From a virus (lineage: Duplodnaviria; Heunggongvirae; Uroviricota; Caudoviricetes), in the IMG/VR virus record IMGVR_UViG_2695420539_000016: a stretch of DNA of 37,459 nt; one strand, 5' to 3'. The position numbers were made by a program, and so were the translations under genes. Below, in pieces: positions 1 through 19,579 of this stretch. A model generated the notes under the pieces. It was not told the DNA's origin. It was given only the letters and a program-made list of their open reading frames with translations, and did not search any database. The first letter of the stretch is position 1, and every line of letters begins with the position of its first letter.

Positions 1-405
1 ATGGATCAGGTCGTTGTTTTTCAAAAGATGTTTGAGCAAGTGAGAAAAGAGCAAAACTTCTCCTGGTTTTATTCAGAATTAAAACATCACCGTATTGCAC
101 ATTACATTTATTATCTGGCTACGGATAACATCAGAATTATTACTCACGATGACACGGTTTTGTTATTAAGAGGAACCAGGAACCTGTTAAAAGTTAGTAC
201 GACCAAGAACCCTGCTAAAATAAAAGAGGCCGCATTGCTTCATATTTGCGGAAAATCTACATTTCGGGAATACTGTTCAACACTAGCAGGCGCGGGCGTT
301 TTCCGGTGGGTTACTGATGTTAATCATAACAAACGCAGTTACTACGCCATTGATAATACGCTTTTATATATTGAAGATGTAGAAAATAATAAACCATTAA
401 TCTAG
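1..405 (+). CDS. ycgX: YcgX-like small protein (chromosomal, left-arm copy)
   Basis: 134-aa ORF immediately beyond iraM in the order icdC-iraM-ycgX-bluR that I recall for E. coli K-12; assignment rests on synteny and length, sequence not verified. Confidence 0.5.
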   Translation: MDQVVVFQKMFEQVRKEQNFSWFYSELKHHRIAHYIYYLATDNIRIITHDDTVLLLRGTRNLLKVSTTKNPAKIKEAALLHICGKSTFREYCSTLAGAGVFRWVTDVNHNKRSYYAIDNTLLYIEDVENNKPLI

Positions 406-613
406 CTAAAGTTGGATGCTTAAGAAATGCTTCATAATTCAGTAAGGCATTAGCATAATGGGAATAAAAGTACAGAGACTATCCCTATGGATGATAAATA
501 CTGTCCTTTTATTGCTACCCATAAATAATCACCATGCCAATACTATCAAATTGATATTTGAAATGTGATCACTTGACTTTCTATACGTTATTTTATAACG
601 GTTAATATATTTA

Positions 614-643
614 TAAAAACAACGGGTGTGCCATACGCCCGTT
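614..643 (-). terminator. icd-terminator-like hairpin (second, diverged copy)
   Basis: Stem AACGGG(T)G / CGCCCGTT, A-run upstream on + strand (T-run on - strand); about 55 bp resemble the icd 3' UTR/terminator. Confidence 0.3.
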
Positions 644-1100
644 TCAATACTTAACGCACATGTGTTTTGGTTTAGTCATCATCCAGTTATATGTATTTTA
701 GCCAGGAACAGGTTAAACCTTTCCTATATAACTCAAAAATTGAAACCTTATTCTCATGTCATGCTTATATTCATTATTATCGTTATATAAAAAGGCAACC
801 ATAATGTTTAGCAAATTGGCACAAAGTAGCATAAAGGCTATGTTTTAATTACAGGATGTTCAGTCATTTGAATGTATAACATTATAGCTAAACAAATCTA
901 AAACGAAGTGAATAATTTATTGTTTTCACTAAATCTCATTTTGTTTAACATCCATTGAGATTCCTTGCTTTAAATTTTGTTTTATATAAGCAATCGTTTT
1001 AATTAATTTATTTTTTGAAGGGGTAATATACTCATATGCAAAATAAAGAAATGAACATCCAAATGAACTATATTAAATACCGTGGGATAAGACATAACAA

Positions 1101-1424
1101 ATGAAGTGGATAGTAATTGACACGATAATTCAACCTTCATGCGGCATATCTTTTTCAGCCATATGGGGTAATATGAAAATGATCATCTGGTATCAATCTA
1201 CTATATTTCTCCCTCCTGGCAGTATATTTACACCGGTTAAATCTGGAATTATCCTTAAAGATAAAGAATATCCTATTACTATTTATAACATCGCACCATT
1301 CAACAAGGATTTATGGAGTCTACTCAAAAGCAGTCAAGAGTGTCCTCCAGGAGAAAGCAAAATAACAAATAAATGTTTGCATAATAGTTGCATTATAAAA
1401 ATATGCCCATATGGGCTCAAGTAA
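1101..1424 (+). CDS. iraM: Anti-adaptor protein IraM (RssB inhibitor), left-arm copy
   Basis: 107-aa [35 protein letters not shown]... matches my recollection of E. coli IraM (YcgW) nearly residue for residue; AT-rich context. Confidence 0.65.
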
Positions 1425-1471
1425 AGGGTTTTATATAAATATGCTCGATATGCTATTAATAATACCTACAT

Positions 1472-1504
1472 AAATAAAACAACGGGCGTGTTATACGCCC
1501 GTTG
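1472..1504 (-). terminator. icd rho-independent terminator (left-arm copy)
   Basis: GC-rich stem CAACGGGCG / CGCCCGTTG followed by T-run, directly after the icd-fragment stop. Confidence 0.5.
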
Positions 1505-1526
1505 CAATATTAAACACATGTAGTGA

Positions 1527-1691
1527 TTACATGTTCTTGATGATCGCATCACCAAATTCTGAACATTTCAGCAGTTTAGCGCCTTCCATCAGACGTTCGA
1601 AGTCATAGGTTACAGTCTTGGCGTTGATTGCGCCTTCCATACCTTTAACAATCAGGTCTGCGGCTTCAGTCCAGCCCATATGGCGTAACAT
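1527..1691 (-). pseudogene. icdC: icd 3' fragment (icdC), prophage attR relic, left-arm copy
   Basis: Translates [54 protein letters not shown], the C-terminus of isocitrate dehydrogenase; no upstream icd sequence, AT-rich phage-side DNA abuts it. Confidence 0.75.
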
Positions 1692-2227
1692 TAGATTTAG
1701 AAAATTATTATATCCAATTGAATTAAAACAATTTTATACTTAACGAACATCTAAACTTGTTTTTTTACCTTCACCATAACTCGCTGATTTTGTATAGTTT
1801 ACGTAGCGTTTTGATAACCACTTTATGGCAAAATGGAGGTTCGCTTGAAAACTTCTGTTCTTATCCAGAAATTAATGGAAATTGACAAAACTGTACTATT
1901 CGATGCGGACGTAGTGACCGGTGAGGAATGGTGGCCAACCCCGATTTCTCGTGTTTATCACAATCCGCCACATACTTATGTAGAATTTTAAACAGGTGAA
2001 CAATCTCAAAATGAATCTGACGAGCTAAGTGTTTATAGCGAATTACAAATTTGTGCACATCGAATGATGCAAATTAGAGATTTTGTGCAATCTAACGAGG
2101 GACTGAAACCTGAAAAAATTGTTTCGGAAATAAACATTCAAATTGAACGTATTAAAAAGTGATGGCTGAAGCAATTCTGAAACACTAATTCATATTCTAT
2201 GTTCTTCATACCAATGTGGATTTAACT

Positions 2228-2253
2228 CCCACCCACCCACCAACCCACCAACC
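2228..2253 (-). repeat. G-quadruplex-type G-tract cluster (C-rich on + strand), about 260 bp upstream of the GmrSD-like gene
   Basis: cccacccacccaccaacccaccaacc on + strand, i.e. GGG-N-GGG-N-GGG-N-GGG on - strand, isolated in AT-rich DNA. Confidence 0.35.
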
Positions 2254-2472
2254 ATGATTGGGCGGCGCAAGAAACTAATATCAATTAAAACAGCAAGTTA
2301 TCAGTCTAAACAGAACACCAACGGGATGGAGGAGAGACAAAAAATATCCAATGAAACCGTAGCGCGTCAGCATTCAAAAGCGGGGTTTCTTATTTTTACT
2401 TCACCAGTAACAAATACACTGTATCATAACTACATAAAAATGATTGTTCTGACTCAGATGAATTTCTTACTC

Positions 2473-2501
2473 TTGTGGAATGTCACTTAATGTTATTTAT
2501 A
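2473..2501 (+). promoter_or_regulatory. Candidate sigma70 promoter of the GmrSD-like gene (mirrored at 8412..8440 on - strand)
   Basis: TTGTGG, 17-bp spacer, TTTATA, then AGGT Shine-Dalgarno and ATG at 2510; read by eye. Confidence 0.25.
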
Positions 2502-2509
2502 GGTAAACA

Positions 2510-4399
2510 ATGAAATCCGAAACGCTAACCATCCAGCAAATTTTCCAAAATCAACGACAATATCGTGTTCCATTCTATCAACGTGCCTACGTATGGACGC
2601 AACGAAACCAATGGTCAGCTTTGTTGGAGGATATCTTCGAAAAAGCACAGAGCCGACTTTCGGGAACAAAACCAACCCCTCATTTCCTCGGCGCGGTGGT
2701 GCTGGAACCTCAACTCAAAAACAGCTTGTTAGGTGTAGATACCATACATATTATTGACGGCCAGCAACGTTTAACCACTCTTCAATATATTCTGGCATCC
2801 ATTCGATTATCATTGCGTGCTACAGGCCTTTCTGAACTGGAAGGGTTAGTATTGACTTGCTTGAAAAATACAAACGAAGCAACGATGAGAAATAAAAAGG
2901 TAGAATGCTTCAAACTGTGGCCAACTTTTCGAGATCAAACTCATTTTATTCAAAGTCTTAATGTTGATAATATTGACGATCTCCGTAATGTATTTTCTGA
3001 TAGCTTCACGCAACATGGTACGTTACGTAAACATTTCAACCACCCGCCGTCACTAGAGGCATTATGGTTTTTTACTGAAGCCTTTATAAAATGGATTAAA
3101 ATAGAAAACCACTCACCACAAGAAAATGCTGTAGCACTAATTGAGGCTGTCTTGACGGATCTGAAACTGGTAAGCATATTTCTCGAAGCTGAAGATGATG
3201 CCCAAATAATTTTTGAAACATTAAATGGGCGAGGAGCGGAACTTCATGCAACGGATCTTATTCGCAACTATATCTTTATGTGCGCTGAGCATGAAAATAT
3301 TAATGCTATTGAATTATATGAAAATGAGTGGAAGATCTTTGAAGATAAATACTGGTCGGAAAAGCAACGCCGTGGACGTATTAATAAACCACGCATGGAG
3401 TGGCTTGTACATGCGACATTGCAATCAGAAAGGCAGCGTGAAATTGATCTGTCTCGCCTTTACAATGAGTATCGTGATTATGTAAGTAAGGACTTGCCTT
3501 CACAACGAGCAGATCTGCAAGTAAAGCGCCTCAAACAATATGCATCACAATATAAAGAATTGGTTGGTGGTTTTGGCACAACCCCCATCTCACACTTTGG
3601 ACATCGCATCGCAGCCTATGATGTGACGACACTCTATCCGCTTGCTTTGTTCATTTCGATAGCTAACATCGCCGATGATGAGAAAGCAGCCATGTATAAT
3701 GATCTTGTCTCCTACGTAGTACGAAGATCCGTATGTGGCCTGACGCCAAAGAATTACAACAATGTATTTATGAATGTATTGCGACACTTGTCTAAAACGG
3801 AAATTTCCAGTGTTGAGTTACGTAATATCCTCAATAGCTTAAATGGCGAAGCCTCACGTTGGCCTGGGGACTCAGAATTTCTCAACGCTTGCATCAATGC
3901 TCCACTTTATCCTGGCAGGCTCGACGCACCGAAAATGCGCTCAATGTTAACGGAACTTGAAAGAGAACTTTGTCGCCAAGTGAAGACAGAAAAGCCTGAT
4001 GTTCCAAATCTTTCTAATCTCGATATCGATCATCTTATGCCTCAAAGTTGGTATTCCTGTTGGCCTCTCGAAAATGGTCATATGGTGACAAATTCAGATG
4101 CTACGGTAATGAACCAAATTGTTCTGTCTGGAACCGATCTTACCCCTGAACAGCTACTGGTAAGGAAACGGCAACAAGCGATAGCTACGTTGGGAAATCT
4201 AACTTTGCTTAACCTTAGCGTAAACCGTTCCGTTCAGAATGCTGTATTTCTGAAAAAACGTGATGCTCTCATCGTCCACACCAATCTACGACTGAACATA
4301 CCACTTATACTTAAGGATAAATGGGATGAGAGTGAAATACAGGAGCGAGGTAAAAAGTTGGGGGAAATTGCATTGAAAGTATGGCCAAAATACGATTAA
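2510..4399 (+). CDS. DUF262/DUF1524 protein, GmrSD/BrxU-type candidate type IV (modification-dependent) restriction endonuclease, left-arm copy
   Basis: 629 aa; N-terminal ParB-like DUF262 motifs YRVPFYQRAYVW and IIDGQQRLTTL; C-terminal DUF1524/HNH-like motifs DIDHLMPQ and GNLTLLNLSVNRSVQN. Confidence 0.8.
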   Translation: MKSETLTIQQIFQNQRQYRVPFYQRAYVWTQRNQWSALLEDIFEKAQSRLSGTKPTPHFLGAVVLEPQLKNSLLGVDTIHIIDGQQRLTTLQYILASIRLSLRATGLSELEGLVLTCLKNTNEATMRNKKVECFKLWPTFRDQTHFIQSLNVDNIDDLRNVFSDSFTQHGTLRKHFNHPPSLEALWFFTEAFIKWIKIENHSPQENAVALIEAVLTDLKLVSIFLEAEDDAQIIFETLNGRGAELHATDLIRNYIFMCAEHENINAIELYENEWKIFEDKYWSEKQRRGRINKPRMEWLVHATLQSERQREIDLSRLYNEYRDYVSKDLPSQRADLQVKRLKQYASQYKELVGGFGTTPISHFGHRIAAYDVTTLYPLALFISIANIADDEKAAMYNDLVSYVVRRSVCGLTPKNYNNVFMNVLRHLSKTEISSVELRNILNSLNGEASRWPGDSEFLNACINAPLYPGRLDAPKMRSMLTELERELCRQVKTEKPDVPNLSNLDIDHLMPQSWYSCWPLENGHMVTNSDATVMNQIVLSGTDLTPEQLLVRKRQQAIATLGNLTLLNLSVNRSVQNAVFLKKRDALIVHTNLRLNIPLILKDKWDESEIQERGKKLGEIALKVWPKYD

Positions 4400-4421
4400 T
4401 GCAATTAATAAAATGATTATA

Positions 4422-4445
4422 GCGGCCTTACATTAGTAAGGCCGC
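4422..4445. terminator. Hairpin between convergent pin stub and GmrSD-like gene (possible bidirectional terminator)
   Basis: Mirror of 6468..6491: 9-bp stem GCGGCCTTA / TAAGGCCGC, 6-nt loop. Confidence 0.35.
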
Positions 4446-4624
4446 AACTCACTATTAAATCCTTTAATTTGCATCAAGAACAGCACTGTCAGCCCTAGGC
4501 TCTCGGACTTTGTACCGCTTATCTTGTCTTCAAAAATCAGCTCGCATCCTGCACAGTTCAACGCATTACGTTGTAGATCGATTTTCTGGTCATTTGTTGA
4601 TACGCAAACATAGCCAATAAGCAT
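4433..4624 (-). pseudogene. Truncated Hin/Gin/Pin-family serine invertase (pin 5' stub, about 45 native codons)
   Basis: MLIGYVCVSTNDQKIDLQRNALNCAGCELIFEDKISGT... matches Pin/Gin N-terminus, then diverges into 18 unrelated codons and stops; conserved Arg before the catalytic Ser is Cys. Confidence 0.75.
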
Positions 4625-4650
4625 GGTAGCTCCCTCTGACAAAAGCAGGA

Positions 4651-5058
4651 ATGATGCCATTTTCTCGTTATTTCTGCATTTTCATAAACGTTGGTTTGGG
4701 AGAAGCGGCAAAACGGAATGTAGGTAACGGGCAAAACCAAATTCCGGATATGGCGGCGTTTGCCAGTTCACTTTCATCAACGGGTTTTCAAAAACTCCCT
4801 TCAGGTCTGATTATTCAGTGGGGTATTGTCAGTGGAGCATCAAACTATACGGTGACTTACCCGGTAACATTCCCAAATCGTTCACTTGCGCTGTTGGCTG
4901 TGCCACATACAACGTCGTTGGCTGGTATATCTGCAATGGGCATTGCGAACTGTTCTGATATCACCAAATCACAGTTCTATATAATTGTTGGCGGTATATC
5001 TCAGGGAGAAATTGTCAAATATGAAAGGTCCTGTTTTTGGGTAGCAATCGGTGTATAG
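4651..5058 (+). CDS. Tail-fibre variable C-terminal exon A, here orphaned (first codons come from the flank, not from a fibre constant region)
   Basis: Residues after GLGE are identical to the C-terminal part of the 218-aa fibre at 34814..35470; the leader MMPFSRYFCIFINV is antisense of the pin stub region. Confidence 0.5.
   Translation: MMPFSRYFCIFINVGLGEAAKRNVGNGQNQIPDMAAFASSLSSTGFQKLPSGLIIQWGIVSGASNYTVTYPVTFPNRSLALLAVPHTTSLAGISAMGIANCSDITKSQFYIIVGGISQGEIVKYERSCFWVAIGV
4679..4704. other. Hybrid crossover site: outer half-site is the inverted outer half of ixR, inner half-site is that of ixL
   Basis: TTTTCATAAACG-TT-GGTTTGGGAGAA; compare normal ixL at 35091..35116 (CTCTTCAAAACC-TT-GGTTTGGGAGAA) and ixR at 6209..6234. 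Confidence 0.55.
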
Positions 5059-5066
5059 GTATATCT

Positions 5067-5462
5067 ATGATTTATTTCTCAAAATCGACTAATGGTTTTT
5101 TCTTTGATGGTATAAACAGCGACATGCCTGCTGACATTGTTGAGATAAGTACAGACTTATACAATGAATTAATTGCCGGACAGCAGGAAGGGGGTAAATT
5201 AATCACGTCAGATGAAAATGGTTTACCGGTACTGAAATCTCCGGCGATTGATTATGTCGCACGTGCTGAAAATCAGCGAATGCAGTTACTTGCTCATGCC
5301 GATAATGTCACAGCTGACTGGCGAGTGGAATTAATGCTTGGTGATATCAGCAGTACAGATAAAGAAAAACTATCCGCCTGGATGGACTACAAAAAAGAAG
5401 TAAAAGCCGTCGACACTTCGACGGCTCCTGAGATTAGCTGGCCTGAGTTACCGGAGGTGTAG
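5067..5462 (+). CDS. Tail fibre assembly protein (Tfa), partner of exon A
   Basis: C-terminal motif VDTSTAPEISWPELPEV typical of lambda Tfa / Mu U family; weak RBS before ATG at 5067. Confidence 0.75.
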   Translation: MIYFSKSTNGFFFDGINSDMPADIVEISTDLYNELIAGQQEGGKLITSDENGLPVLKSPAIDYVARAENQRMQLLAHADNVTADWRVELMLGDISSTDKEKLSAWMDYKKEVKAVDTSTAPEISWPELPEV

Positions 5463-5871
5463 GCCATTCAATATCTGGAGCACTGGAGGTATCCACCAGT
5501 TCCAGTGCGTCCAGGTAATCCAGCCACAAATTATATAGTGCCAGTTCCTCGTCTTTCAGACGACCAATAGCGGCTTTACCGGGCCATTGTTTACTGTTCA
5601 TGTATTCGTTGGCCTGATTAAGCAATAATTGCCTTTCTGATTCTGCCTGTTGAATAAGTTCTTCATGCGATGGTGGAGGTATTAGTGCCCATGTGGGTAA
5701 TCCATTTTTTCCTGCAACACGAATTTTGTCATATGGGGGCGTATTGATTGCAAATTCATTATAAACATCATCACTGACAGCCAGAGCATCATCTGGCCAT
5801 GAATTTGCATTAATGTAATCATCCTTAAGCGCAGGATTCACAAAAATGTTTAATGATGGACTATAAAACAT
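5434..5871 (-). CDS. Tail fibre assembly protein (Tfa'), partner of exon B
   Basis: 145 aa ending ...LVDTSSAPDIEWPTPPVTQAS; convergent with the other tfa and overlapping its 3' end. Confidence 0.75.
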   Translation of the reverse strand: MFYSPSLNIFVNPALKDDYINANSWPDDALAVSDDVYNEFAINTPPYDKIRVAGKNGLPTWALIPPPSHEELIQQAESERQLLLNQANEYMNSKQWPGKAAIGRLKDEELALYNLWLDYLDALELVDTSSAPDIEWPTPPVTQAS

Positions 5872-5872
5872 A

Positions 5873-6262
5873 TTAACCCCCTATAGCGATATAACGACCT
5901 AATACAGCATTTGCAGCAGTCGCTATGCTTGAAAAACCGCGGAACTGATTTGATGTAATTGCAGAAGCCGACAGGATTCCTGCGCCTGAAGGTGTATGCC
6001 CCACATGACTAACTATCATTCCATAACATGCTGACGGAAAGGCAAAAGGAAAATCATTAAGATATCCGGCATCTTCACCACCAGACCCACCAAATCTCGC
6101 CTGCCCCCACTGAATAATCAGTGTTCTCCGGGAACCTGAAATAATTAACGGAATCGTTACATACCCATTCAGACCAATGACACCCGATGCAGTGCCAGCC
6201 AGAGATAATTCTCCCAAACCAACGTTTATGAAAATGCAGAAATAACGAGAAAATGGCATCAT
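5873..6262 (-). CDS. Tail-fibre variable C-terminal exon B (alternative receptor-binding domain) with the same 18-codon flank-derived leader
   Basis: Shares MMPFSRYFCIFINVGLGE with the exon A ORF, then a different Gly/Ser-rich C-terminal domain. Confidence 0.5.
   Translation of the reverse strand: MMPFSRYFCIFINVGLGELSLAGTASGVIGLNGYVTIPLIISGSRRTLIIQWGQARFGGSGGEDAGYLNDFPFAFPSACYGMIVSHVGHTPSGAGILSASAITSNQFRGFSSIATAANAVLGRYIAIGG
6209..6234. other. Crossover site ixR of the invertible segment, copy 1
   Basis: TTCTCCCAAACC-AA-CGTTTATGAAAA; inner half is the exact inverted repeat of the ixL inner half. Confidence 0.55.
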
Positions 6263-6288
6263 TCCTGCTTTTGTCAGAGGGAGCTACC

Positions 6289-6480
6289 ATGCTTATTGGC
6301 TATGTTTGCGTATCAACAAATGACCAGAAAATCGATCTACAACGTAATGCGTTGAACTGTGCAGGATGCGAGCTGATTTTTGAAGACAAGATAAGCGGTA
6401 CAAAGTCCGAGAGCCTAGGGCTGACAGTGCTGTTCTTGATGCAAATTAAAGGATTTAATAGTGAGTTGCGGCCTTACTAA
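6289..6480 (+). pseudogene. Truncated pin-type invertase stub (right-arm copy)
   Basis: Same as 4433..4624; GGGAG RBS then ATG; stop codon lies in the loop of the downstream hairpin. Confidence 0.75.
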
Positions 6481-6491
6481 TGTAAGGCCGC
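6468..6491. terminator. Hairpin between pin stub and GmrSD-like gene
   Basis: GCGGCCTTA-CTAATG-TAAGGCCGC, followed by TATAATCATTTTATT. Confidence 0.35.
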
Positions 6492-6513
6492 TATAATCAT
6501 TTTATTAATTGCA

Positions 6514-8403
6514 TTAATCGTATTTTGGCCATACTTTCAATGCAATTTCCCCCAACTTTTTACCTCGCTCCTGTATTTCACTCTCATCCCATTTATCCTT
6601 AAGTATAAGTGGTATGTTCAGTCGTAGATTGGTGTGGACGATGAGAGCATCACGTTTTTTCAGAAATACAGCATTCTGAACGGAACGGTTTACGCTAAGG
6701 TTAAGCAAAGTTAGATTTCCCAACGTAGCTATCGCTTGTTGCCGTTTCCTTACCAGTAGCTGTTCAGGGGTAAGATCGGTTCCAGACAGAACAATTTGGT
6801 TCATTACCGTAGCATCTGAATTTGTCACCATATGACCATTTTCGAGAGGCCAACAGGAATACCAACTTTGAGGCATAAGATGATCGATATCGAGATTAGA
6901 AAGATTTGGAACATCAGGCTTTTCTGTCTTCACTTGGCGACAAAGTTCTCTTTCAAGTTCCGTTAACATTGAGCGCATTTTCGGTGCGTCGAGCCTGCCA
7001 GGATAAAGTGGAGCATTGATGCAAGCGTTGAGAAATTCTGAGTCCCCAGGCCAACGTGAGGCTTCGCCATTTAAGCTATTGAGGATATTACGTAACTCAA
7101 CACTGGAAATTTCCGTTTTAGACAAGTGTCGCAATACATTCATAAATACATTGTTGTAATTCTTTGGCGTCAGGCCACATACGGATCTTCGTACTACGTA
7201 GGAGACAAGATCATTATACATGGCTGCTTTCTCATCATCGGCGATGTTAGCTATCGAAATGAACAAAGCAAGCGGATAGAGTGTCGTCACATCATAGGCT
7301 GCGATGCGATGTCCAAAGTGTGAGATGGGGGTTGTGCCAAAACCACCAACCAATTCTTTATATTGTGATGCATATTGTTTGAGGCGCTTTACTTGCAGAT
7401 CTGCTCGTTGTGAAGGCAAGTCCTTACTTACATAATCACGATACTCATTGTAAAGGCGAGACAGATCAATTTCACGCTGCCTTTCTGATTGCAATGTCGC
7501 ATGTACAAGCCACTCCATGCGTGGTTTATTAATACGTCCACGGCGTTGCTTTTCCGACCAGTATTTATCTTCAAAGATCTTCCACTCATTTTCATATAAT
7601 TCAATAGCATTAATATTTTCATGCTCAGCGCACATAAAGATATAGTTGCGAATAAGATCCGTTGCATGAAGTTCCGCTCCTCGCCCATTTAATGTTTCAA
7701 AAATTATTTGGGCATCATCTTCAGCTTCGAGAAATATGCTTACCAGTTTCAGATCCGTCAAGACAGCCTCAATTAGTGCTACAGCATTTTCTTGTGGTGA
7801 GTGGTTTTCTATTTTAATCCATTTTATAAAGGCTTCAGTAAAAAACCATAATGCCTCTAGTGACGGCGGGTGGTTGAAATGTTTACGTAACGTACCATGT
7901 TGCGTGAAGCTATCAGAAAATACATTACGGAGATCGTCAATATTATCAACATTAAGACTTTGAATAAAATGAGTTTGATCTCGAAAAGTTGGCCACAGTT
8001 TGAAGCATTCTACCTTTTTATTTCTCATCGTTGCTTCGTTTGTATTTTTCAAGCAAGTCAATACTAACCCTTCCAGTTCAGAAAGGCCTGTAGCACGCAA
8101 TGATAATCGAATGGATGCCAGAATATATTGAAGAGTGGTTAAACGTTGCTGGCCGTCAATAATATGTATGGTATCTACACCTAACAAGCTGTTTTTGAGT
8201 TGAGGTTCCAGCACCACCGCGCCGAGGAAATGAGGGGTTGGTTTTGTTCCCGAAAGTCGGCTCTGTGCTTTTTCGAAGATATCCTCCAACAAAGCTGACC
8301 ATTGGTTTCGTTGCGTCCATACGTAGGCACGTTGATAGAATGGAACACGATATTGTCGTTGATTTTGGAAAATTTGCTGGATGGTTAGCGTTTCGGATTT
8401 CAT
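6514..8403 (-). CDS. DUF262/DUF1524 GmrSD/BrxU-type candidate type IV restriction endonuclease (right-arm copy)
   Basis: Identical 629-aa translation to 2510..4399. Confidence 0.8.
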   Translation of the reverse strand: MKSETLTIQQIFQNQRQYRVPFYQRAYVWTQRNQWSALLEDIFEKAQSRLSGTKPTPHFLGAVVLEPQLKNSLLGVDTIHIIDGQQRLTTLQYILASIRLSLRATGLSELEGLVLTCLKNTNEATMRNKKVECFKLWPTFRDQTHFIQSLNVDNIDDLRNVFSDSFTQHGTLRKHFNHPPSLEALWFFTEAFIKWIKIENHSPQENAVALIEAVLTDLKLVSIFLEAEDDAQIIFETLNGRGAELHATDLIRNYIFMCAEHENINAIELYENEWKIFEDKYWSEKQRRGRINKPRMEWLVHATLQSERQREIDLSRLYNEYRDYVSKDLPSQRADLQVKRLKQYASQYKELVGGFGTTPISHFGHRIAAYDVTTLYPLALFISIANIADDEKAAMYNDLVSYVVRRSVCGLTPKNYNNVFMNVLRHLSKTEISSVELRNILNSLNGEASRWPGDSEFLNACINAPLYPGRLDAPKMRSMLTELERELCRQVKTEKPDVPNLSNLDIDHLMPQSWYSCWPLENGHMVTNSDATVMNQIVLSGTDLTPEQLLVRKRQQAIATLGNLTLLNLSVNRSVQNAVFLKKRDALIVHTNLRLNIPLILKDKWDESEIQERGKKLGEIALKVWPKYD

Positions 8404-8659
8404 TGTTTACCTATAAATAACATTAAGTGACATTCCACAAGAGTAAGAAATTCATCTGAGTCAGAACAATCATTTTTATGTAGTTATGATACAGTGTATT
8501 TGTTACTGGTGAAGTAAAAATAAGAAACCCCGCTTTTGAATGCTGACGCGCTACGGTTTCATTGGATATTTTTTGTCTCTCCTCCATCCCGTTGGTGTTC
8601 TGTTTAGACTGATAACTTGCTGTTTTAATTGATATTAGTTTCTTGCGCCGCCCAATCAT

Positions 8660-8685
8660 GGTTGGTGGGTTGGTGGGTGGGTGGG
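8660..8685 (+). repeat. G-quadruplex-type motif upstream of the GmrSD-like gene
   Basis: ggttggtgggttggtgggtgggtggg. Confidence 0.35.
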
Positions 8686-9221
8686 AGTTAAATCCACATT
8701 GGTATGAAGAACATAGAATATGAATTAGTGTTTCAGAATTGCTTCAGCCATCACTTTTTAATACGTTCAATTTGAATGTTTATTTCCGAAACAATTTTTT
8801 CAGGTTTCAGTCCCTCGTTAGATTGCACAAAATCTCTAATTTGCATCATTCGATGTGCACAAATTTGTAATTCGCTATAAACACTTAGCTCGTCAGATTC
8901 ATTTTGAGATTGTTCACCTGTTTAAAATTCTACATAAGTATGTGGCGGATTGTGATAAACACGAGAAATCGGGGTTGGCCACCATTCCTCACCGGTCACT
9001 ACGTCCGCATCGAATAGTACAGTTTTGTCAATTTCCATTAATTTCTGGATAAGAACAGAAGTTTTCAAGCGAACCTCCATTTTGCCATAAAGTGGTTATC
9101 AAAACGCTACGTAAACTATACAAAATCAGCGAGTTATGGTGAAGGTAAAAAAACAAGTTTAGATGTTCGTTAAGTATAAAATTGTTTTAATTCAATTGGA
9201 TATAATAATTTTCTAAATCTA

Positions 9222-9386
9222 ATGTTACGCCATATGGGCTGGACTGAAGCCGCAGACCTGATTGTTAAAGGTATGGAAGGCGCAATCAACGCCAAGACTG
9301 TAACCTATGACTTCGAACGTCTGATGGAAGGCGCTAAACTGCTGAAATGTTCAGAATTTGGTGATGCGATCATCAAGAACATGTAA
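9222..9386 (+). pseudogene. icdC: icd 3' fragment (icdC), prophage right attachment relic
   Basis: 54 codons encoding the Icd C-terminus; homology starts abruptly at 9222 after AT-rich phage-side DNA. Confidence 0.75.
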
Positions 9387-9408
9387 TCACTACATGTGTT
9401 TAATATTG

Positions 9409-9441
9409 CAACGGGCGTATAACACGCCCGTTGTTTTATTT
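9409..9441 (+). terminator. icd rho-independent terminator
   Basis: CAACGGGCG-TATAACA-CGCCCGTTG followed by TTTTATTT. Confidence 0.55.
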
Positions 9442-9488
9442 ATGTAGGTATTATTAATAGCATATCGAGCATATTTATATAAAACCCT

Positions 9489-9812
9489 TTACTTGAGCCC
9501 ATATGGGCATATTTTTATAATGCAACTATTATGCAAACATTTATTTGTTATTTTGCTTTCTCCTGGAGGACACTCTTGACTGCTTTTGAGTAGACTCCAT
9601 AAATCCTTGTTGAATGGTGCGATGTTATAAATAGTAATAGGATATTCTTTATCTTTAAGGATAATTCCAGATTTAACCGGTGTAAATATACTGCCAGGAG
9701 GGAGAAATATAGTAGATTGATACCAGATGATCATTTTCATATTACCCCATATGGCTGAAAAAGATATGCCGCATGAAGGTTGAATTATCGTGTCAATTAC
9801 TATCCACTTCAT
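9489..9812 (-). CDS. iraM: Anti-adaptor protein IraM (right-arm copy)
   Basis: Identical translation to 1101..1424. Confidence 0.65.
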
Positions 9813-10269
9813 TTGTTATGTCTTATCCCACGGTATTTAATATAGTTCATTTGGATGTTCATTTCTTTATTTTGCATATGAGTATATTACCCCTTCAAAA
9901 AATAAATTAATTAAAACGATTGCTTATATAAAACAAAATTTAAAGCAAGGAATCTCAATGGATGTTAAACAAAATGAGATTTAGTGAAAACAATAAATTA
10001 TTCACTTCGTTTTAGATTTGTTTAGCTATAATGTTATACATTCAAATGACTGAACATCCTGTAATTAAAACATAGCCTTTATGCTACTTTGTGCCAATTT
10101 GCTAAACATTATGGTTGCCTTTTTATATAACGATAATAATGAATATAAGCATGACATGAGAATAAGGTTTCAATTTTTGAGTTATATAGGAAAGGTTTAA
10201 CCTGTTCCTGGCTAAAATACATATAACTGGATGATGACTAAACCAAAACACATGTGCGTTAAGTATTGA

Positions 10270-10299
10270 AACGGGCGTATGGCACACCCGTTGTTTTTA
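10270..10299 (+). terminator. Second icd-terminator-like hairpin (diverged duplicate)
   Basis: AACGGGCG-TATGGCA-CACCCGTT then TGTTTTTAT; upstream bases also resemble the icd 3' UTR. Confidence 0.3.
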
Positions 10300-10507
10300 T
10301 AAATATATTAACCGTTATAAAATAACGTATAGAAAGTCAAGTGATCACATTTCAAATATCAATTTGATAGTATTGGCATGGTGATTATTTATGGGTAGCA
10401 ATAAAAGGACAGTATTTATCATCCATAGGGATAGTCTCTGTACTTTTATTCCCATTATGCTAATGCCTTACTGAATTATGAAGCATTTCTTAAGCATCCA
10501 ACTTTAG

Positions 10508-10912
10508 CTAGATTAATGGTTTATTATTTTCTACATCTTCAATATATAAAAGCGTATTATCAATGGCGTAGTAACTGCGTTTGTTATGATTAACATCAGT
10601 AACCCACCGGAAAACGCCCGCGCCTGCTAGTGTTGAACAGTATTCCCGAAATGTAGATTTTCCGCAAATATGAAGCAATGCGGCCTCTTTTATTTTAGCA
10701 GGGTTCTTGGTCGTACTAACTTTTAACAGGTTCCTGGTTCCTCTTAATAACAAAACCGTGTCATCGTGAGTAATAATTCTGATGTTATCCGTAGCCAGAT
10801 AATAAATGTAATGTGCAATACGGTGATGTTTTAATTCTGAATAAAACCAGGAGAAGTTTTGCTCTTTTCTCACTTGCTCAAACATCTTTTGAAAAACAAC
10901 GACCTGATCCAT
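10508..10912 (-). CDS. ycgX: YcgX-like small protein (right-arm copy)
   Basis: Identical translation to 1..405; GAGG RBS lies at 10913+ so the gene context continues naturally past the visible palindrome edge. Confidence 0.5.
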   Translation of the reverse strand: MDQVVVFQKMFEQVRKEQNFSWFYSELKHHRIAHYIYYLATDNIRIITHDDTVLLLRGTRNLLKVSTTKNPAKIKEAALLHICGKSTFREYCSTLAGAGVFRWVTDVNHNKRSYYAIDNTLLYIEDVENNKPLI

Positions 10913-11132: not shown

Positions 11133-11400
11133 TTAGGGGGCATGAAAGATGACTTTATAACCTTGCTCACCCCAATGTTGTAAAAGTTCGTTTTGCCTTC
11201 TCGTTGGTGCCATGCCTGTCCAGACAATCAATGTTTGCGTCGGGAACAGTTCCGGGCGCGGCGATTCAATGGGATCAGCAAGAACAGAAATGTGCCATCC
11301 TGACAATGATAAACGCCATGCTTCCAGCCACAATCGTGCTCTCTCTTCAACATTCCACGCCATCAGAATGGCTTCTTTACCGGGCTTACGGCGCATTACT
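11133..11400 (-). pseudogene. bluR: 3' fragment of a BluR/MlrA-type MerR-family regulator; by synteny probably bluR (ycgE)
   Basis: C-terminal roughly 85 codons of the 168-aa ORF (...[52 protein letters not shown]...) resemble the BluR/MlrA C-terminal domain as I recall it; no MerR HTH region exists upstream on this strand. Confidence 0.45.
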
Positions 11401-12289
11401 GCTGGAGCCTGAGCCGGAGCATTATTCATCTTTCGCCAGTGGTGCCGTTCCCGCGGCATCACAACCGCTGGCGGATGATCCTGTCGTTCGGGCCGTGTTC
11501 CGTAATGAGGCAGTGATTCGTCGTGCTGGTGGGGTGGAATGTCTTGAAAGCTGGTTACTTCGTGAAAAAGGCTGCCAGTGGCCTCATTCCGACTGGCACA
11601 GCGAGAACATGACCACAATGCGACACGCGCCGGGCGCAATCCGTCTGTGCTGGCACTGCGATAACCAGTTGCGCGATCAGTTCACGGAACGGCTGGAATC
11701 AATGGCAACGGATAACTGTGCCCGCTGGGTATTGTCTGTTGTGCGTCGGGATCTCGGTTTTGATGATAGTCACGTTGTGACAATGCCGGAACTGTGCTGG
11801 TGGCTGGTTCGTAATGACCTGGCGGATGCCTTACCGGAAAGTGCAGCCCGTAAGGCACTGAGATTACCGAAGCCTGTTGTGCCGTCTGTCACCCGGGAAA
11901 GTGACCTTGTGCCTTCGGTTCCTGCCACCAGCATCATCCAGGATAAGGCGAAAAAGGTGCTGGCGCTGAAAGTGGATCCGGAGTCGCCGGAGTCTTTTAT
12001 GTTACGCCCAAAACGTCGCCGCTGGGCTAATGAAAAGTACACGCGCTGGGTTAAGACACAGCCGTGTGCATGTTGTGGAAAGCTTGCTGATGATCCCCAC
12101 CACCTGATAGGCGACGGTCAGGGGGGAATGGGTACAAAAGCGCATGACCTCTTTGTGTTGCCTTTGTGCAGAAAGCATCACGACGATCTGCATGCGGATA
12201 CCGTGGCATTTGAAGAAAAGTATGGCTCCCAGTTGGAGCTGATATTTCGTTTTATCGATCGTGCGCTGGCAATTGGCGTGCTGGCGTAA
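11204..12289 (+). CDS. DUF968-type phage protein (Qin YdfU-like) with C-terminal Cys/His zinc-binding motif; 5' end uncertain and probably truncated by the junction
   Basis: C-terminus ...[24 protein letters not shown]...[12 protein letters not shown]; the track start is a TTG and the first roughly 60 codons are antisense to the bluR fragment; first in-frame ATG beyond the joint is at 11609. Confidence 0.5.
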
Positions 12290-12302
12290 GTGGAGAACGA
12301 GC

Positions 12303-13055
12303 ATGAACCTTGAAGCCTTACCAAAATATTACTCCCCAAAATCTCCAAAATTGAGCGATGACGCACCGGCGACAGGCTCAGGTGGTTTAACGATTACGGA
12401 TGTGATGGCTGCGCAGGGGATGGTGCAGTCGAAAGCACCGCTTGGGTTTGCCTTATTCCTGGCAAAAGTTGGTGTTCAGGATCCTCAGTTTGCGATTGAA
12501 GGTCTGCTCAATTACGCGATGGCACTGGATAACCCGACATTGAACAAATTGAGTGAAGAAACCCGGTTACAGATCATCCCTTACCTTGTGAATTTTGCCT
12601 TTGCTGATTATTCCAGGTCTGCGGCAAGTAAGGCTCGCTGTGAGCATTGTGCTGGTACTGGATTTCATAATGTATTGCGCGAAGTGGTGAAACACTCCAG
12701 AAGCGGGGAATCTGTTATCAAGGAAGAGTGGGTGAAGGAACTATGTCAGCATTGCCATGGTAAGGGAGAAGTCAGCACCGCGTGCAGAGGGTGTAAGGGT
12801 AAAGGTATTGTCCTGGATGAAAAAAGAACCCGGCTTCATGGCACGCCTGTTTATAAGATTTGTGGGCGTTGCAGTGGAAACCGGTTTAGCCGTTTACCAA
12901 CCACACTGGCGCGGCTTCATGTCCAGAAGCTGGTACCAGACCTGACGGATTATCAGTGGTACAAAGGATATGCAGATGTCATTGATAAACTGGTTACAAA
13001 GTGCTGGCAGGAGGAAGCTTACGCTGAAGCACAATTGAGAAGGGTGACGAGATAA
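12303..13055 (+). CDS. Late-gene antitermination protein Q (QuuQ/YdfT-like)
   Basis: 250 aa from ATG 12303 with GGAGAA RBS; four CxxC pairs (CEHCAGTGF, CQHCHGKGE, CRGCKGKG, CGRCSGN); lies directly upstream of the lysis cassette. Confidence 0.65.
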   Translation: MNLEALPKYYSPKSPKLSDDAPATGSGGLTITDVMAAQGMVQSKAPLGFALFLAKVGVQDPQFAIEGLLNYAMALDNPTLNKLSEETRLQIIPYLVNFAFADYSRSAASKARCEHCAGTGFHNVLREVVKHSRSGESVIKEEWVKELCQHCHGKGEVSTACRGCKGKGIVLDEKRTRLHGTPVYKICGRCSGNRFSRLPTTLARLHVQKLVPDLTDYQWYKGYADVIDKLVTKCWQEEAYAEAQLRRVTR

Positions 13056-13162
13056 GCGATTTTCGCCGAAGATAACGACATAATACTTGTATTTCTCAAA
13101 AAATATGGATAAGATTTTCTCAACGATGGGGCTTGTGTATCTATCGTTGAACAATTTTTACG

Positions 13163-13188
13163 ACCTCGCTATTGCGAGGTTTTTTTAT
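13163..13188 (+). terminator. Rho-independent terminator downstream of Q (tR'-like)
   Basis: ACCTCGC-TATT-GCGAGGT followed by TTTTTT. Confidence 0.55.
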
Positions 13189-13198
13189 GGTTTTTTTC

Positions 13199-13232
13199 TA
13201 TTCAATCTACATCAAAATCAATGTGTTATAAT
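13199..13232 (+). promoter_or_regulatory. Candidate promoter of moron 1 with extended -10
   Basis: TGtTATAAT at 13224..13232 with T-rich upstream region; AGGAGA RBS before ATG 13270. Confidence 0.3.
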
Positions 13233-13269
13233 GTTTTCTGTAAAACAACATTAAAAACAGGAGAACATT

Positions 13270-13539
13270 ATGAAACTGACCTCTATCCATCTTGAAATAC
13301 TACGTCGAGTGAATGAATTGCAGCCAAAGGATTCTAGAATTCAGGCTGCATCATTACCTCATCTCTCAGCAAAAGAGGTTAACTTTGCTATTTCAGATCT
13401 TGCTGATATAGGTTTTATCGATGTTATACGAAGCAAATCTGCCGAAGGTGGATTGATTGCTAATGAGATAACGTCAAAAGGTTTTGCTTTTTTGAGTGAG
13501 ATTGGCGCTGAAAAAAATTCATCGATGAGCACTCATTGA
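13270..13539 (+). CDS. Small winged-helix-like protein (moron 1, gene 1)
   Basis: 89 aa with strong AGGAGA RBS; helix-turn-wing pattern LEILRRV...EVNFAISDLADIGFIDV; AT-rich. Confidence 0.5.
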   Translation: MKLTSIHLEILRRVNELQPKDSRIQAASLPHLSAKEVNFAISDLADIGFIDVIRSKSAEGGLIANEITSKGFAFLSEIGAEKNSSMSTH

Positions 13540-13553
13540 TTTCTGCTTCAATC

Positions 13554-13571
13554 GGCTGCCAATTGGCAGCC
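13554..13571. other. Perfect 18-bp palindrome GGCTGCCAATTGGCAGCC (possible operator or attenuator hairpin)
   Basis: Exact dyad 15 bp after the stop of the 89-aa gene; no T-tract follows. Confidence 0.3.
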
Positions 13572-13736
13572 TAAACTGTAAAGTGAATTTAAAATCGCCT
13601 ACAATTGATGCTTAAATTTTGTTCTGTATCATCTGCAGGTTTAGGGATATCACAGTAGCTTTCTGACAAGAAGAGTTCTTTTCTTCTACCAATGAAGTGG
13701 TTATGTTAACCTGCGCTAAATCGAGACTGGTGCGGA

Positions 13737-14543
13737 GTGGAATCGAAAGTGTCATATTTTTACAGAAGCAAGAATATTTCAGGTGTTTCTATAAATGAAG
13801 ATAGCTTGATTAGCTTAAGCACGGCAATTGTCGAACGCTGCGTTAAAATGAATGAGCAAGCTCAAAAGGAAAGTAGGGAAGTTTGTGCTCAATGTGTTTT
13901 TTTTATTTTGTTCGATGGTAAGGGGTATAAAGTTGATTCTATCGGTGAGCTTGTGAAATACTTTAGACAGGCCACTAGGATTGATCAAATAATTTTTACT
14001 ATTGAAACTTATCAAAGTCGACAGTCTAACAGGATGAATGGATCTTGGATGGAGCTACGAATTGATGAGAGGAATTCAAATAGCAGCACAATGATTGTAG
14101 CATCGGAAGATAATGAGTGGGTTGACTCGTTATGGATTACGATTCAGGATTTACTTAACAAGTGCAAAAATAAATTTAGATTTTTTAGAACAGCTTGGAC
14201 TATGTTAAGTATCCAGATTTCAGGTGTGACAGTTGGCTTTTTGCTTAGCTTATGGACAGCCTCAAAACTGGCGCCAAAACTATCAATCGATGGTGCATTT
14301 GCTTTATCATTTATTTGTATCTTTATTTTGTTTTCGAACTTATGGAGCTTTGCTATTCCATTAATAATTAAGCTTATCGACTTTTTGTTTCCTAGTGTTA
14401 AGTTTGTTATTAATGGTAAAAATTACTTTCACTGGAGTGTCCAGGCTATAATTGGAGCGATTGCCAGTGCGGTTATATTGTATTTTATTAGCTCCATGTT
14501 GCTTTTTGCATTAGAAATGTTAAATAGCATCATTAAGAAATAG
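13737..14543 (+). CDS. Membrane protein with soluble N-terminal domain and about four C-terminal transmembrane helices (moron 1, gene 2)
   Basis: 268-aa ORF (GTG start in the track; first ATG at 13848); hydrophobic C-terminal stretches; visibly AT-rich against neighbouring phage genes. Confidence 0.5.
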   Translation: MESKVSYFYRSKNISGVSINEDSLISLSTAIVERCVKMNEQAQKESREVCAQCVFFILFDGKGYKVDSIGELVKYFRQATRIDQIIFTIETYQSRQSNRMNGSWMELRIDERNSNSSTMIVASEDNEWVDSLWITIQDLLNKCKNKFRFFRTAWTMLSIQISGVTVGFLLSLWTASKLAPKLSIDGAFALSFICIFILFSNLWSFAIPLIIKLIDFLFPSVKFVINGKNYFHWSVQAIIGAIASAVILYFISSMLLFALEMLNSIIKK

Positions 14544-14651
14544 TTAATGAATTAGTTATAATTACATCAATTCTATGGCTGCCAAATGGTGGCCTTTTTT
14601 ATTCCTCTCATTTCTATTTCTGAGAGGACTCACTGCAATAAGAGGTGGCTA

Positions 14652-15038
14652 ATGTCCGATCCGATTTCCGGCACAGGGTTAGCTGGTGGAGCCCTAACGG
14701 GCGCTAGTATTTATGGACTGCTGACCGGAACTGATTACGGCGTTGTATTTGGCGCATTTGCAGGGGCTGTATTCTACATAGCAACAGCAGCAGATCTGAG
14801 TGCATCGCGCCGACTAGCATATTTTATCGTGTCATATATTGCCGGGATCCTTTGCTCTGGGTTGGTTGGCTCCAAGCTGGCGAACTTGACCGGATACAGT
14901 GATAAACCTCTGGATGCTATTGGTGCCGTAATCGTCTCTGCTTTAGCCGTTAAAATCCTGACGTTCCTGAATAATCAGGATATCGGCTCGCTGGTGGCGC
15001 TCATAACGCGCCGGGGAGGTTCAGGTGGAGCTAAATGA
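14652..15038 (+). CDS. Holin-like glycine-rich multi-pass membrane protein (lysis cassette)
   Basis: ATG 14652 preceded by GAGGTGG; first gene of the lysis block. Confidence 0.5.
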   Translation: MSDPISGTGLAGGALTGASIYGLLTGTDYGVVFGAFAGAVFYIATAADLSASRRLAYFIVSYIAGILCSGLVGSKLANLTGYSDKPLDAIGAVIVSALAVKILTFLNNQDIGSLVALITRRGGSGGAK

Positions 15039-15306
15039 CCCGACAGCAACTATAAATGCGCTGTTATGTGCTTGTGTTGTTATTACTCTGATGTTTTATC
15101 GTCGTGGCGACTCCAGACATCGACCGTGGATATCTCGCTTAGCGTGGCTGCTTACGGTCATTTATAGCGCCGTACCGCTGGCGTATCTGTGCGGTATCTA
15201 CCCTTATTCATCGTGGGCCACTATCGTGGCCAACATTATTTTCCTGTCCGTGCTGGTCGCCGTCAGAGGCAATGTGGCACGTCTGGTTGACCATCTGAGG
15301 CACTAA
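15025..15306 (+). CDS. Holin/antiholin-like small membrane protein (three predicted TM segments)
   Basis: GTG start with GGAGG RBS; overlaps previous gene; immediately precedes the endolysin. Confidence 0.45.
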   Translation: MELNDPTATINALLCACVVITLMFYRRGDSRHRPWISRLAWLLTVIYSAVPLAYLCGIYPYSSWATIVANIIFLSVLVAVRGNVARLVDHLRH

Positions 15307-15920
15307 TGAACCAATCACAATTTCAGCAGGCGGCTGGTATCAGCGCCGATGTTTCTGCACGCTGGTTTCCGCACATTGATGCGGCAATGAAAGAGTTTGG
15401 TATTACAGCAGTTAATGATCAGGCCATGTTCATTGCACAAGTCGGGCATGAGTCTGCAGGATTTACTTCGCTGGCAGAGAGTTTTAACTACTCGGTTGAA
15501 GGGCTGAAGAAAACCTTTGGTAAGCGTCTGACGCCGTACCAGTGCGAAATGCTGGGGCGTGTCGATGGTAAACAGGTCGCTCACCAGCCGCAAATAGCCA
15601 ATCTGGTTTACGGTGACCGCATGGGGAATAACAGCCAGGGTGACGGCTGGAAATATCGCGGTCGTGGCCTGCTTCAAATTACTGGCCGTGAGAACTACAC
15701 CAAATGTGGTGCGGCGCTGAAACTTGACCTTGTCAATACACCAGAATTGCTAACGCAGGAGCGACATGCGGCCCGTTCGGCGGCGTGGTACTTCACGTTA
15801 CGCGGTTGCTTGATGTATTCGGGTGACGTGGAACGTGTAACGCAGATTATTAACGGCGGACAGAATGGCATTAAAGACCGCCGTGAACGTTACGCCAAAG
15901 CAAAAGCCGCACTGGTATGA
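15306..15920 (+). CDS. Endolysin, glycoside hydrolase family 19 (chitinase-class lysozyme)
   Basis: Motifs QVGHESAGFT and YRGRGLLQITGRENY; GAGG RBS. Confidence 0.8.
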   Translation: MNQSQFQQAAGISADVSARWFPHIDAAMKEFGITAVNDQAMFIAQVGHESAGFTSLAESFNYSVEGLKKTFGKRLTPYQCEMLGRVDGKQVAHQPQIANLVYGDRMGNNSQGDGWKYRGRGLLQITGRENYTKCGAALKLDLVNTPELLTQERHAARSAAWYFTLRGCLMYSGDVERVTQIINGGQNGIKDRRERYAKAKAALV

Positions 15921-15927
15921 GGTCACT

Positions 15928-16197
15928 ATGGGACTTGAAATGATTATCGGCCTGGTTGTTGCTGTGCTGGCTGCAATTGCAGGTGCTTTTGGTCTGGGTA
16001 AATCACGCGGTACAAGTATCGCAGAAACAAAAGCGGACCAGCAACGCACTGAAGAACGTGCAGCTGCTACTGAAGCCGTTGCAGAACGTAGGGTAGAGAC
16101 AACAAAAGGAGCCTGGGATGTACAGCAGACTGTTAATCATCTACCTGATGACGATGTTGACCGTGAGTTGCGCGAAAACTTTACCCGCAAAACCTGA
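15928..16197 (+). CDS. Rz-like i-spanin
   Basis: N-terminal TM helix MIIGLVVAVLAAIAGAF then charged periplasmic region; ATG 15928 with GAGG RBS. Confidence 0.6.
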   Translation: MGLEMIIGLVVAVLAAIAGAFGLGKSRGTSIAETKADQQRTEERAAATEAVAERRVETTKGAWDVQQTVNHLPDDDVDRELRENFTRKT

Positions 16198-16336: not shown

Positions 16337-16347
16337 GGCAAACGAGA

Positions 16348-16370
16348 TTGCGGGCAATTATCGCCCGCAA
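16348..16370. terminator. Hairpin between convergent Rz1 and the antisense moron gene
   Basis: TTGCGGGC-AATTATC-GCCCGCAA. Confidence 0.35.
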
Positions 16371-16378
16371 TAAAGTTA

Positions 16379-19568: not shown

Positions 19569-19579
19569 CTGAGGTAATT

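Follow-up and report, generated by a model that had tools for sequence, protein, structure and literature searches.

Among the closest described relatives of the locus analysed here is the P segment of the Escherichia coli prophage e14. Each of the invertases PinE, PinQ and PinR inverts this segment, which was found inverted in 33% of 562 deposited genomes (PMC12529663), and in clonal cultures derived from MG1655 the two orientations of the e14 locus occur at about 1:1 (PMC4272514). The invertasome, with Fis and an enhancer, confines wild-type invertases to intramolecular inversion and allows the inversion of any inverted pair of sites in cis (PMC3798978); because of the first property, separate molecules are not expected to fuse. 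Extra contigs in the PacBio assembly of E. coli EC958 arose from prophage tail-fibre switches that occurred in alternate orientations (PMC4134206). Here we analyse the IMG/VR virus record IMGVR_UViG_2695420539_000016, a stretch of 37,459 nucleotides that is referred to, at its full length, as the window. Its first 10,912 nt form a palindrome centred on a tail-fibre switch. The underlying object is an ordinary, already known switch of the e14 P-segment type, served by serine DNA invertases. The palindrome itself is probably a computational assembly chimera that joins both orientations of the switch, and most likely no real cellular feature.

Anatomy of the palindrome

Comparison of each position x with position 10913-x gave no mismatches across 1-4690, and the match continued inward to 4704. 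A repeat finder accordingly delimited a perfect inverted repeat with arms at 1-4704 and 6209-10912 (4704 nt each, 100% complementary) and a spacer of 1504 nt. Self-BLAST of the window was concordant with these arms and confirmed the palindrome. An inverted repeat of 4.7 kb without a single mismatch cannot be due to chance. The two arms and their mirrored genes are as follows.

1..4704: left arm, in which the switch's right flank is reverse-complemented, cut off by the window start; it carries ycgX (1-405, +), ymgL/ymgK, iraM (1101-1424, +), the icd 3' remnant (1527-1694, -), GmrSD (2510-4399, +) and the pin remnant (4481-4624, -)
6209..10912: right arm, where the right flank of the switch has its native form, colinear with the E. 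coli 22-245 chromosome; it carries the pin remnant (6289-6432, +), GmrSD (6514-8403, -), the icd remnant (9219-9386, +), iraM (9489-9812, -) and ycgX (10508-10912, -)
1-405 and 10508-10912: mirrored pair, DUF1398 (= ycgX) by family match
1101-1424 and 9489-9812: mirrored pair, iraM
1527-1694 (-) and 9219-9386 (+): mirrored pair, icd 3' remnant, covering positions 300-348 of the 348 in the Iso_dh profile
2510-4399 and 6514-8403: mirrored pair, GmrSD_N plus GmrSD_C by Pfam
4433-4660 (-) and 6253-6480 (+): mirrored pair, open reading frame (ORF) of a resolvase N-terminal stub

A preliminary description of this DNA, made from the letters and their ORFs, had reported that the ORFs of the left arm recur on the opposite strand around an invertible core, that reverse-complemented right-flank DNA takes the place of the left flank expected for the switch, that a pin stub adjoins the core, and that the arm runs off the window start. 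All of this held. Every mirrored pair was recovered within the 100% complementary arms, the core proved to be the 1504-nt spacer with its mirrored fibre and chaperone cassette, and the stub is the N-terminal remnant of an invertase; the native copy of the switch, further along the window, has the fibre constant region (34814-35102) where the palindromic copy has the inverted flank. The anomaly is confined to positions 1-4685, in which the reverse complement of the right flank stands where the fibre constant region belongs. As DNA, the left arm is itself unremarkable, being 100% identical to the chromosome of E. coli 22-245 (L015 4215-8918). The window start coincides exactly with the ATG of ycgX, suggesting that this boundary derives from gene coordinates or from a node of the assembly graph, and not from biology.

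Inverted terminal repeats or hairpin ends of a linear replicon were considered as an explanation and ruled out, the arms consisting of host chromosomal genes colinear with strain 22-245. Within the left arm, the icd remnant is the 1527-1694 (-) segment and not the 78-aa ORF at 2254-2490, which lies just upstream of GmrSD and matches no family. The GmrSD product (629 aa) is a type IV restriction enzyme and has a full-length match to the PADLOC model mREase_IV.

The invertible segment and its crossover sites

The spacer, called S below together with its second copy, and the sites that bound both copies comprise the following features.

4679..4704 (+): hybrid 26-bp crossover site at the left junction, TTTTCATAAACG-TT-GGTTTGGGAGAA, with the core TT at 4691-4692
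4705..6208: unique core of S, with fibre C-terminus Sv (4693-5058, +), chaperone U (5067-5462, +), chaperone U' (5434-5871, -) and fibre C-terminus Sv' (5873-6220, -)
6209..6234 (+), and again 36621-36646: ixR, TTCTCCCAAACC-AA-CGTTTATGAAAA, with the core AA at 6221-6222
34814-35470: fibre gene, with its constant region at 34814-35102
35091..35116 (+): native ixL, within the fibre gene, CTCTTCAAAACC-TT-GGTTTGGGAGAA
35117..36620: second copy of S, in the same orientation, identical to 4705-6208 and with normal flanks
36621..37459: third, partial copy of the right flank, with ixR, the pin remnant and the 3' part of GmrSD, running off the window end

This organisation is that of a serine-invertase switch. 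The two 26-bp sites are inverted with respect to each other, each has 12-bp half-sites around a 2-bp core, and both fit the consensus of PMC4134206. ixR is identical in sequence to its counterpart in phage Cartapus and includes the inverted repeat of the e14 P segment given in PMC12529663; the crossover repeat of the window, TTGGTTTGGGAGAAG, matches the published e14 repeat, TTGGTTTGGGAGAAGG (PMC12529663). S encodes, in order, Gp53-like_C, Caudo_TAP, Caudo_TAP (-) and Gp53-like_C (-), that is, two mirrored fibre C-termini, each with a chaperone. In the native switch (35091-36646), one of these C-termini is fused in frame to the constant part, giving the ORF at 34814-35470; the palindromic copy has no fibre constant part.

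The point at which the inverted arm departs from the native left flank is the central TT of the crossover site. The hybrid site at the left junction combines an outer half equal to the pin-side half-site (the reverse complement of ixR) with an inner half equal to the left end of S, and it differs from the native ixL in the outer half alone. Likewise, 4681-7047 and 35094-37459 are the same except for the outer half of the crossover site. A strand-foldback read artefact (a missed adapter, with the template and its complement in one read) was rejected as a source, as it would give a palindrome lacking a spacer and centred on an arbitrary point, not a 1.5-kb S bounded by ix sites.

The ends of S carry a 14-nt inverted repeat, TTGGTTTGGGAGAA, which contains the crossover core. 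A snap-back during replication, of the kind that yields tandem inversion duplications, could in principle exploit it: a nascent 3' end ending in this repeat would pair with the other end of S and copy its own flank, producing the same topology and the same junction sequence. We regard such an event as highly improbable. By what is established for quasipalindrome-templated events, a stem of 14 nt that closes a 1.5-kb loop would make a very poor substrate; the other non-native junction of the window (described below) is direct, not of the inverted type expected of a tandem inversion duplication; and the finished genomes searched contain no such structure.

Both junctions in normal genomes

The left junction of the palindrome, which joins the reverse complement of the pin flank to the left end of S, is nothing other than the inverted state's right junction seen from the opposite strand. 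Of the complete E. coli genomes, 95 contain it whole, and 32 contain whole the native junction, from the fibre constant region to the left end of S. The two states are represented, one each, by the siblings E. coli 22-245 (5,073,334 bp) and 22-250 (5,073,329 bp), isolates from chicken meat that are 5 bp apart in length and have identical flank coordinates. At this locus their flanks are 100% identical and the sole difference is the inversion of S, so that both orientations occur within one lineage. Strains ANT and DAM likely form a second such pair.

The window draws on both states. Positions 490-6232 match 22-250, while 4681-8888 and 30900-37459 match 22-245; thus, the left junction of the palindrome is as in 22-250 and the right junction as in 22-245. 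In a k-mer test against these two genomes, every substring of 1-10912 of up to 1533 nt was present in one or the other, and the first palindrome-specific k-mer was the 1534-mer at 4690-6223. The junctions are therefore individually normal, and nothing shorter than S is specific to a chimera. Because the shortest specific span is 1534 nt, data shorter than 1.5 kb cannot distinguish the palindrome from a mixture of the two states.

In the switch region, the complete genome AMSHJX01 (L001 31130-32434) shows 14 gap openings relative to the window, and its annotation marks the fibre and pin genes as frameshifted. The indels are probably uncorrected long-read errors and not biology.

The search for palindromes elsewhere

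We searched for records covering at least 80% of the centre of the palindrome (3700-7200). None was found among 5,426 complete E. coli genomes, in which the best matches cover an arm plus S or S plus an arm only, nor among 50,697 phage records and 72,556 plasmid records. The identical chaperone gene was also seen in 10 independent contexts, all of them normal and none palindromic.

Among IMG/VR loci with the same cassette, however, 2 of 37 are palindromes of the same construction, and the two represent opposite mirror forms. IMGVR_UViG_2585427784_000007 (L028 2782-6377) has the flank with a full-length invertase on both sides of S, with a spacer of 1504 nt; in IMGVR_UViG_2609459847_000004 (L039 263-4095), the mirror form, S lies between two copies of the fibre constant region. 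In each, one arm stops at the contig end. The structure is thus absent from finished genomes and recurs in draft and viral contigs in both mirror forms, and the L028 and L039 palindromes are likely to be unrecognised assembly artefacts in the database. Many IMG/VR contigs that bear the cassette (L050, L051 with a match from base 1, L017, L022, L024 and others) start or end inside S or within about 1 kb of it, suggesting that assemblies commonly break at this switch.

Origin of the palindrome

A palindrome that recurs in contigs from different phage backgrounds, and in both mirror forms, while the finished genomes searched have none, bears the mark of an assembler that turns back through a segment present in both orientations. 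We propose the following course of events. S, which carries two alternative fibre C-termini and their chaperones on 1.5 kb between inverted 26-bp sites, is flipped by serine DNA invertases, and both orientations would have been present in the DNA that was sequenced. Read on the opposite strand, the inverted state gives the reverse complement of the pin flank, then ix, then S; the other state gives S, then ix, then the pin flank. As the two states share the whole 1.5 kb of S, an assembler unable to span S by single reads or read pairs can walk from the inverted flank into S and out into the flank again. Such a walk yields identical arms, and its breakpoints coincide with the crossover core. We infer that the source reads were of mixed state and that software made the join. 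Of the two origins offered in the preliminary description, the assembler mis-join is thus the one we favour; recombination between ixL of one copy and ixR of another appears less likely, and a simple head-to-head dimer is incompatible with the normal flanks that the second switch of the window has on both sides.

Several points weigh against an assembler turn-back. The arm seen here is at least 4.7 kb long, as against about 1-1.2 kb in L028 and L039. A computational turn-back becomes less likely if the assembly used long reads that span S. Finally, the same window contains a second non-native junction, at 11397/11399; it implies either a circular form or a molecule on which the switch recurs, and this is the precondition for a real event between copies.

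The second non-native junction and the 30,412-nt unit

Apart from its inverted left arm, the window is laid out as follows.

11133..11397 (-): 3' fragment of the host gene bluR; chromosomal colinearity ends at 11397
11397..11399: non-native junction in direct orientation, from mid-bluR through a filler A at 11398 to about codon 34 of the prophage gene DUF968
11399..35090 (+): late genes of an e14-like prophage whose contractile tail is Mu-like, comprising truncated DUF968', Q antiterminator, lysis, HNH/terminase, head, tail and baseplate genes and the fibre constant region

Comparison with AMSHJX01 and 22-245 shows that the window rearranges a single stretch of chromosome, namely an e14-like prophage in icd and its right flank. 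Positions 6209-11397 are colinear with the chromosome through the pin remnant, GmrSD, icdC, iraM, ycgX and the 3' part of bluR. At 11397/11399 the sequence jumps back by about 30.4 kb, with a single untemplated A and no microhomology, into the late region, which is 99.985% identical to that of strain 22-245. The unit closed by this bluR'/DUF968' junction is 30,412 nt long, a period shown by the correspondence of 4686 to 35098; the whole window makes 1.23 turns of it, and 4686-37459 makes 1.08. The preliminary description had noted the fibre constant region at 34814-35104 and had missed the sole reason for a second copy of the switch, which is that the window exceeds one turn of the unit.

Queries spanning the bluR'/DUF968' junction found no counterpart in complete E. 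coli genomes, phages or plasmids, and the 38-nt junction sequence had no match in viral, genome or metagenome contigs. Exact look-ups of the chimeric ORF with alternative start codons returned no protein. A homology search with its 361-aa translation returned ordinary DUF968 proteins only, none of which covers the chimeric N-terminus. In geometry the junction could be the join of a tandem duplication or of an aberrant excision of the specialised-transduction type; it could equally be a chimeric join. Normal excision of e14 at icd was rejected as the source of the 30.4-kb unit, the join lying in mid-bluR and mid-DUF968 and not at att.

A chimera formed in the library, before any assembly, has also to be weighed: polymerase chain reaction, multiple displacement amplification or library preparation might have joined molecules of opposite state through S, by template switching or ligation, and the product would then have been assembled faithfully. 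The 1.5 kb that the two states share is ideal for template jumping, and the lone untemplated A without microhomology at the bluR'/DUF968' junction is, in our reading, what ligation of dA-tailed fragments could leave. As a rule, however, chimeric molecules are rare and would not dominate a consensus; the library type is not readable from the sequence, and the IMG/VR examples at contig ends point to the behaviour of an assembly graph. On balance, we consider a library-level origin unlikely.

The same junction bears on the possibility of a genuine inverted duplication made by an invertase. An origin by recombination of ixL with ixR requires at least two copies of the switch (here at least three), and the window has two, 30,412 nt apart. 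Units of 30.4 kb (DUF968'...fibre-S-pin'-GmrSD-icdC-iraM-ycgX-bluR') would have to lie in a tandem array or circular multimer of at least three; a Pin/Gin-type invertase acting in trans would then invert 28.9 kb by recombining ixR of one unit with ixL of the next, two sites in inverted orientation within a single molecule, leaving rc(A)-S-A beside a normal unit, where A is the right flank, A' or rc(A) its reverse complement, C the fibre constant region, b' the bluR fragment and X the prophage region that follows it. In favour of this scenario, the second switch lies at exactly one unit length and the direct bluR'/DUF968' junction is able to create repeats, the breakpoints fall at the crossover core, and the switch flips in this lineage despite a dead resident pin; full-length invertases with identical cassettes are common in E. 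coli P2-like prophages, and the invertasome can invert any inverted site pair in cis (PMC3798978).

The observed order is A'-S-A-b'/X...C-S-A. Neither a head-to-head dimer nor a two-copy tandem duplication followed by one inversion was retained as a candidate: S would be flanked by A' and A or by C and C', or else the arm would enter intact bluR. More generally, enumeration of the possible paths indicates that rc(A)-S-A-b'-X-S-A cannot arise from a monomer, from a tandem duplication or from a head-to-head dimer, so that at least three units would be needed. From an array of two units the right arm would run into intact bluR, and from a circular dimer the second switch would read C-S-rc(C). The reciprocal product, C-S-rc(C), does not occur in the window, no such palindrome exists among the 5,426 finished genomes, the amplification junction is absent from the databases searched, and a walk through an assembly graph makes the same sequence more simply. 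An invertase-made duplication is, in our view, improbable, and the assembler turn-back remains the preferred explanation.

The resident invertase remnant and flipping in trans

6289..6432 (+), with its mirror at 4481-4624 (-): invertase gene remnant, in which ~47 codons are left from the start of a gene for a Gin-like invertase of 188 aa, with an Arg8 to Cys change

By tblastn, the remnant is identical at 39 of 49 positions to residues 1-49 of the Cartapus invertase, and it covers the Resolvase profile at positions 2-54 of 145 only. Homology at the DNA level stops at about 6424, where the GmrSD region starts, and the RefSeq annotation gives the pin remnant as an incomplete pseudogene. The switch consequently has no functional invertase gene beside it. 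A scan of 6209-6520 with a degenerate Fis motif gave two loose matches (6359 and 6382) and no pair at a spacing of ~48 bp; the part of pin that is kept, its 5' part, spans the usual location of the enhancer, about 100 bp from the site.

Judged from sequence, flipping of S must depend on an invertase supplied in trans, because the resident pin is a ~47-codon remnant and yet near-identical genomes differ in the orientation of S. The activity is presumably provided by invertases of other prophages; full-length invertases beside a 100% identical chaperone cassette are common in E. coli P2-like prophages. As a by-product of this study, therefore, an e14-type switch is seen to keep flipping between sibling isolates despite a 47-codon invertase, in agreement with the action of PinQ and PinR in trans.

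The 131-aa tail-fibre assembly protein encoded at 5067-5462 is 100% identical in this e14-like prophage, with its Mu-like tail, and in several P2-like prophages with full-length invertases (L007-L010, L012 and L014). From these identities, the invertible cassette seems to have been exchanged as a module among unrelated phages.

Neighbouring genes

A GmrSD-type enzyme is located between the pin remnant and icdC, a place that is held in the e14 of K-12 by McrA, an unrelated type IV enzyme. The acquisition of GmrSD appears to have truncated pin. In a related genome, L005, GmrSD (7444-9333) is split into two ORFs.

Two islands of low GC content (13270-14543 and 29221-29751; 0.37-0.40, versus ~0.55 in the phage body) interrupt the late region. 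Their ORFs encode 89, 268 and 176 aa; the latter two have no Pfam or PADLOC match, and the 89-aa product has a sub-threshold match to Pfam DUF2513. The islands may be morons, one inserted between Q and the holin gene and the other between the tape-measure and DNA-circularisation genes. In L005, a gene for an IS200/IS605-type Y1 transposase (16568-17026) lies between the ORF of the 176-aa putative moron product and the DNA-circularisation gene.

Implications

The main value of these results lies in data hygiene. Invertible tail-fibre switches, which are mixed in nearly every culture, generate perfect contig palindromes on the kilobase scale, and these are open to misreading as inverted dimers, inverted terminal repeats or hairpin replicons. 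The artefact would be flagged by a simple screen for two features: (i) an inverted repeat whose spacer is bounded by crossover sites, and (ii) the presence of each junction, separately, in finished genomes. There is a slim chance that the sample truly carried an amplified or episomal 30.4-kb unit (the late half of the e14-like prophage plus icdC-iraM-ycgX-bluR'), closed by an illegitimate bluR'/DUF968' join in the manner of a specialised-transducing circle or a tandem amplification, with a Pin-family invertase acting in trans to recombine the sites of neighbouring units. Were this minority reading true, an enzyme of phase variation could drive large inverted duplications, and a tail-fibre switch would be an engine of palindromic rearrangement.

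Comparison with known systems

The P segment of e14 (PinE; PinQ/PinR) is like this switch in its setting, at the right end of an icd-integrated prophage, beyond which come, in order, a gene for type IV restriction, the icd 3' remnant, iraM, ycgX and bluR. The two also share the crossover repeat, the mirrored cassettes of fibre C-terminus and chaperone, and the occurrence of both orientations among genomes. They differ in the length of S (1.5 kb here, 1.8 kb in e14), in the resident pin, which here has ~47 codons with R8C, and in the presence of GmrSD in place of McrA; moreover, the prophage here is full length (~36 kb) with a Mu-like tail, whereas that of K-12 is a 15-kb remnant.

Gin and the G segment of Mu, Cin and the C segment of P1, and Hin and the H segment of Salmonella resemble this system in their 26-bp sites with 12-bp half-sites and a 2-bp core, and in exchange at the core. 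Their reaction is intramolecular inversion under the control of Fis and an enhancer. Here, by contrast, there is no functional invertase in cis, and the scan of the remnant identified no enhancer.

Tandem inversion duplications have an inverted junction centred on a short inverted repeat, as is seen here. Circles of the specialised-transducing type and tandem-duplication joins connect a point inside a prophage to a flanking host gene, which is the geometry of the bluR'/DUF968' junction. Unlike either class, the window mixes the junction types, one being inverted and the other direct.

The extra contigs of the EC958 PacBio assembly (PMC4134206) are comparable in that heterogeneity of a switch within one culture disturbed the assembly, and one of the prophages concerned has a truncated invertase. 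In EC958, however, each contig was just an alternative allele between normal flanks, and the authors explicitly excluded hairpin artefacts, whereas here the contig turns back on its own flank. The palindromes in L028 and L039 share with the present one perfect inverted copies of a flank around an S cassette 97% identical to that of the window, with breakpoints at the ix sites; they differ in their prophage backgrounds, L028 having an invertase of full length and L039 a P2-like fibre in the arrangement C-S-C', and in their arms of only ~1-1.2 kb.

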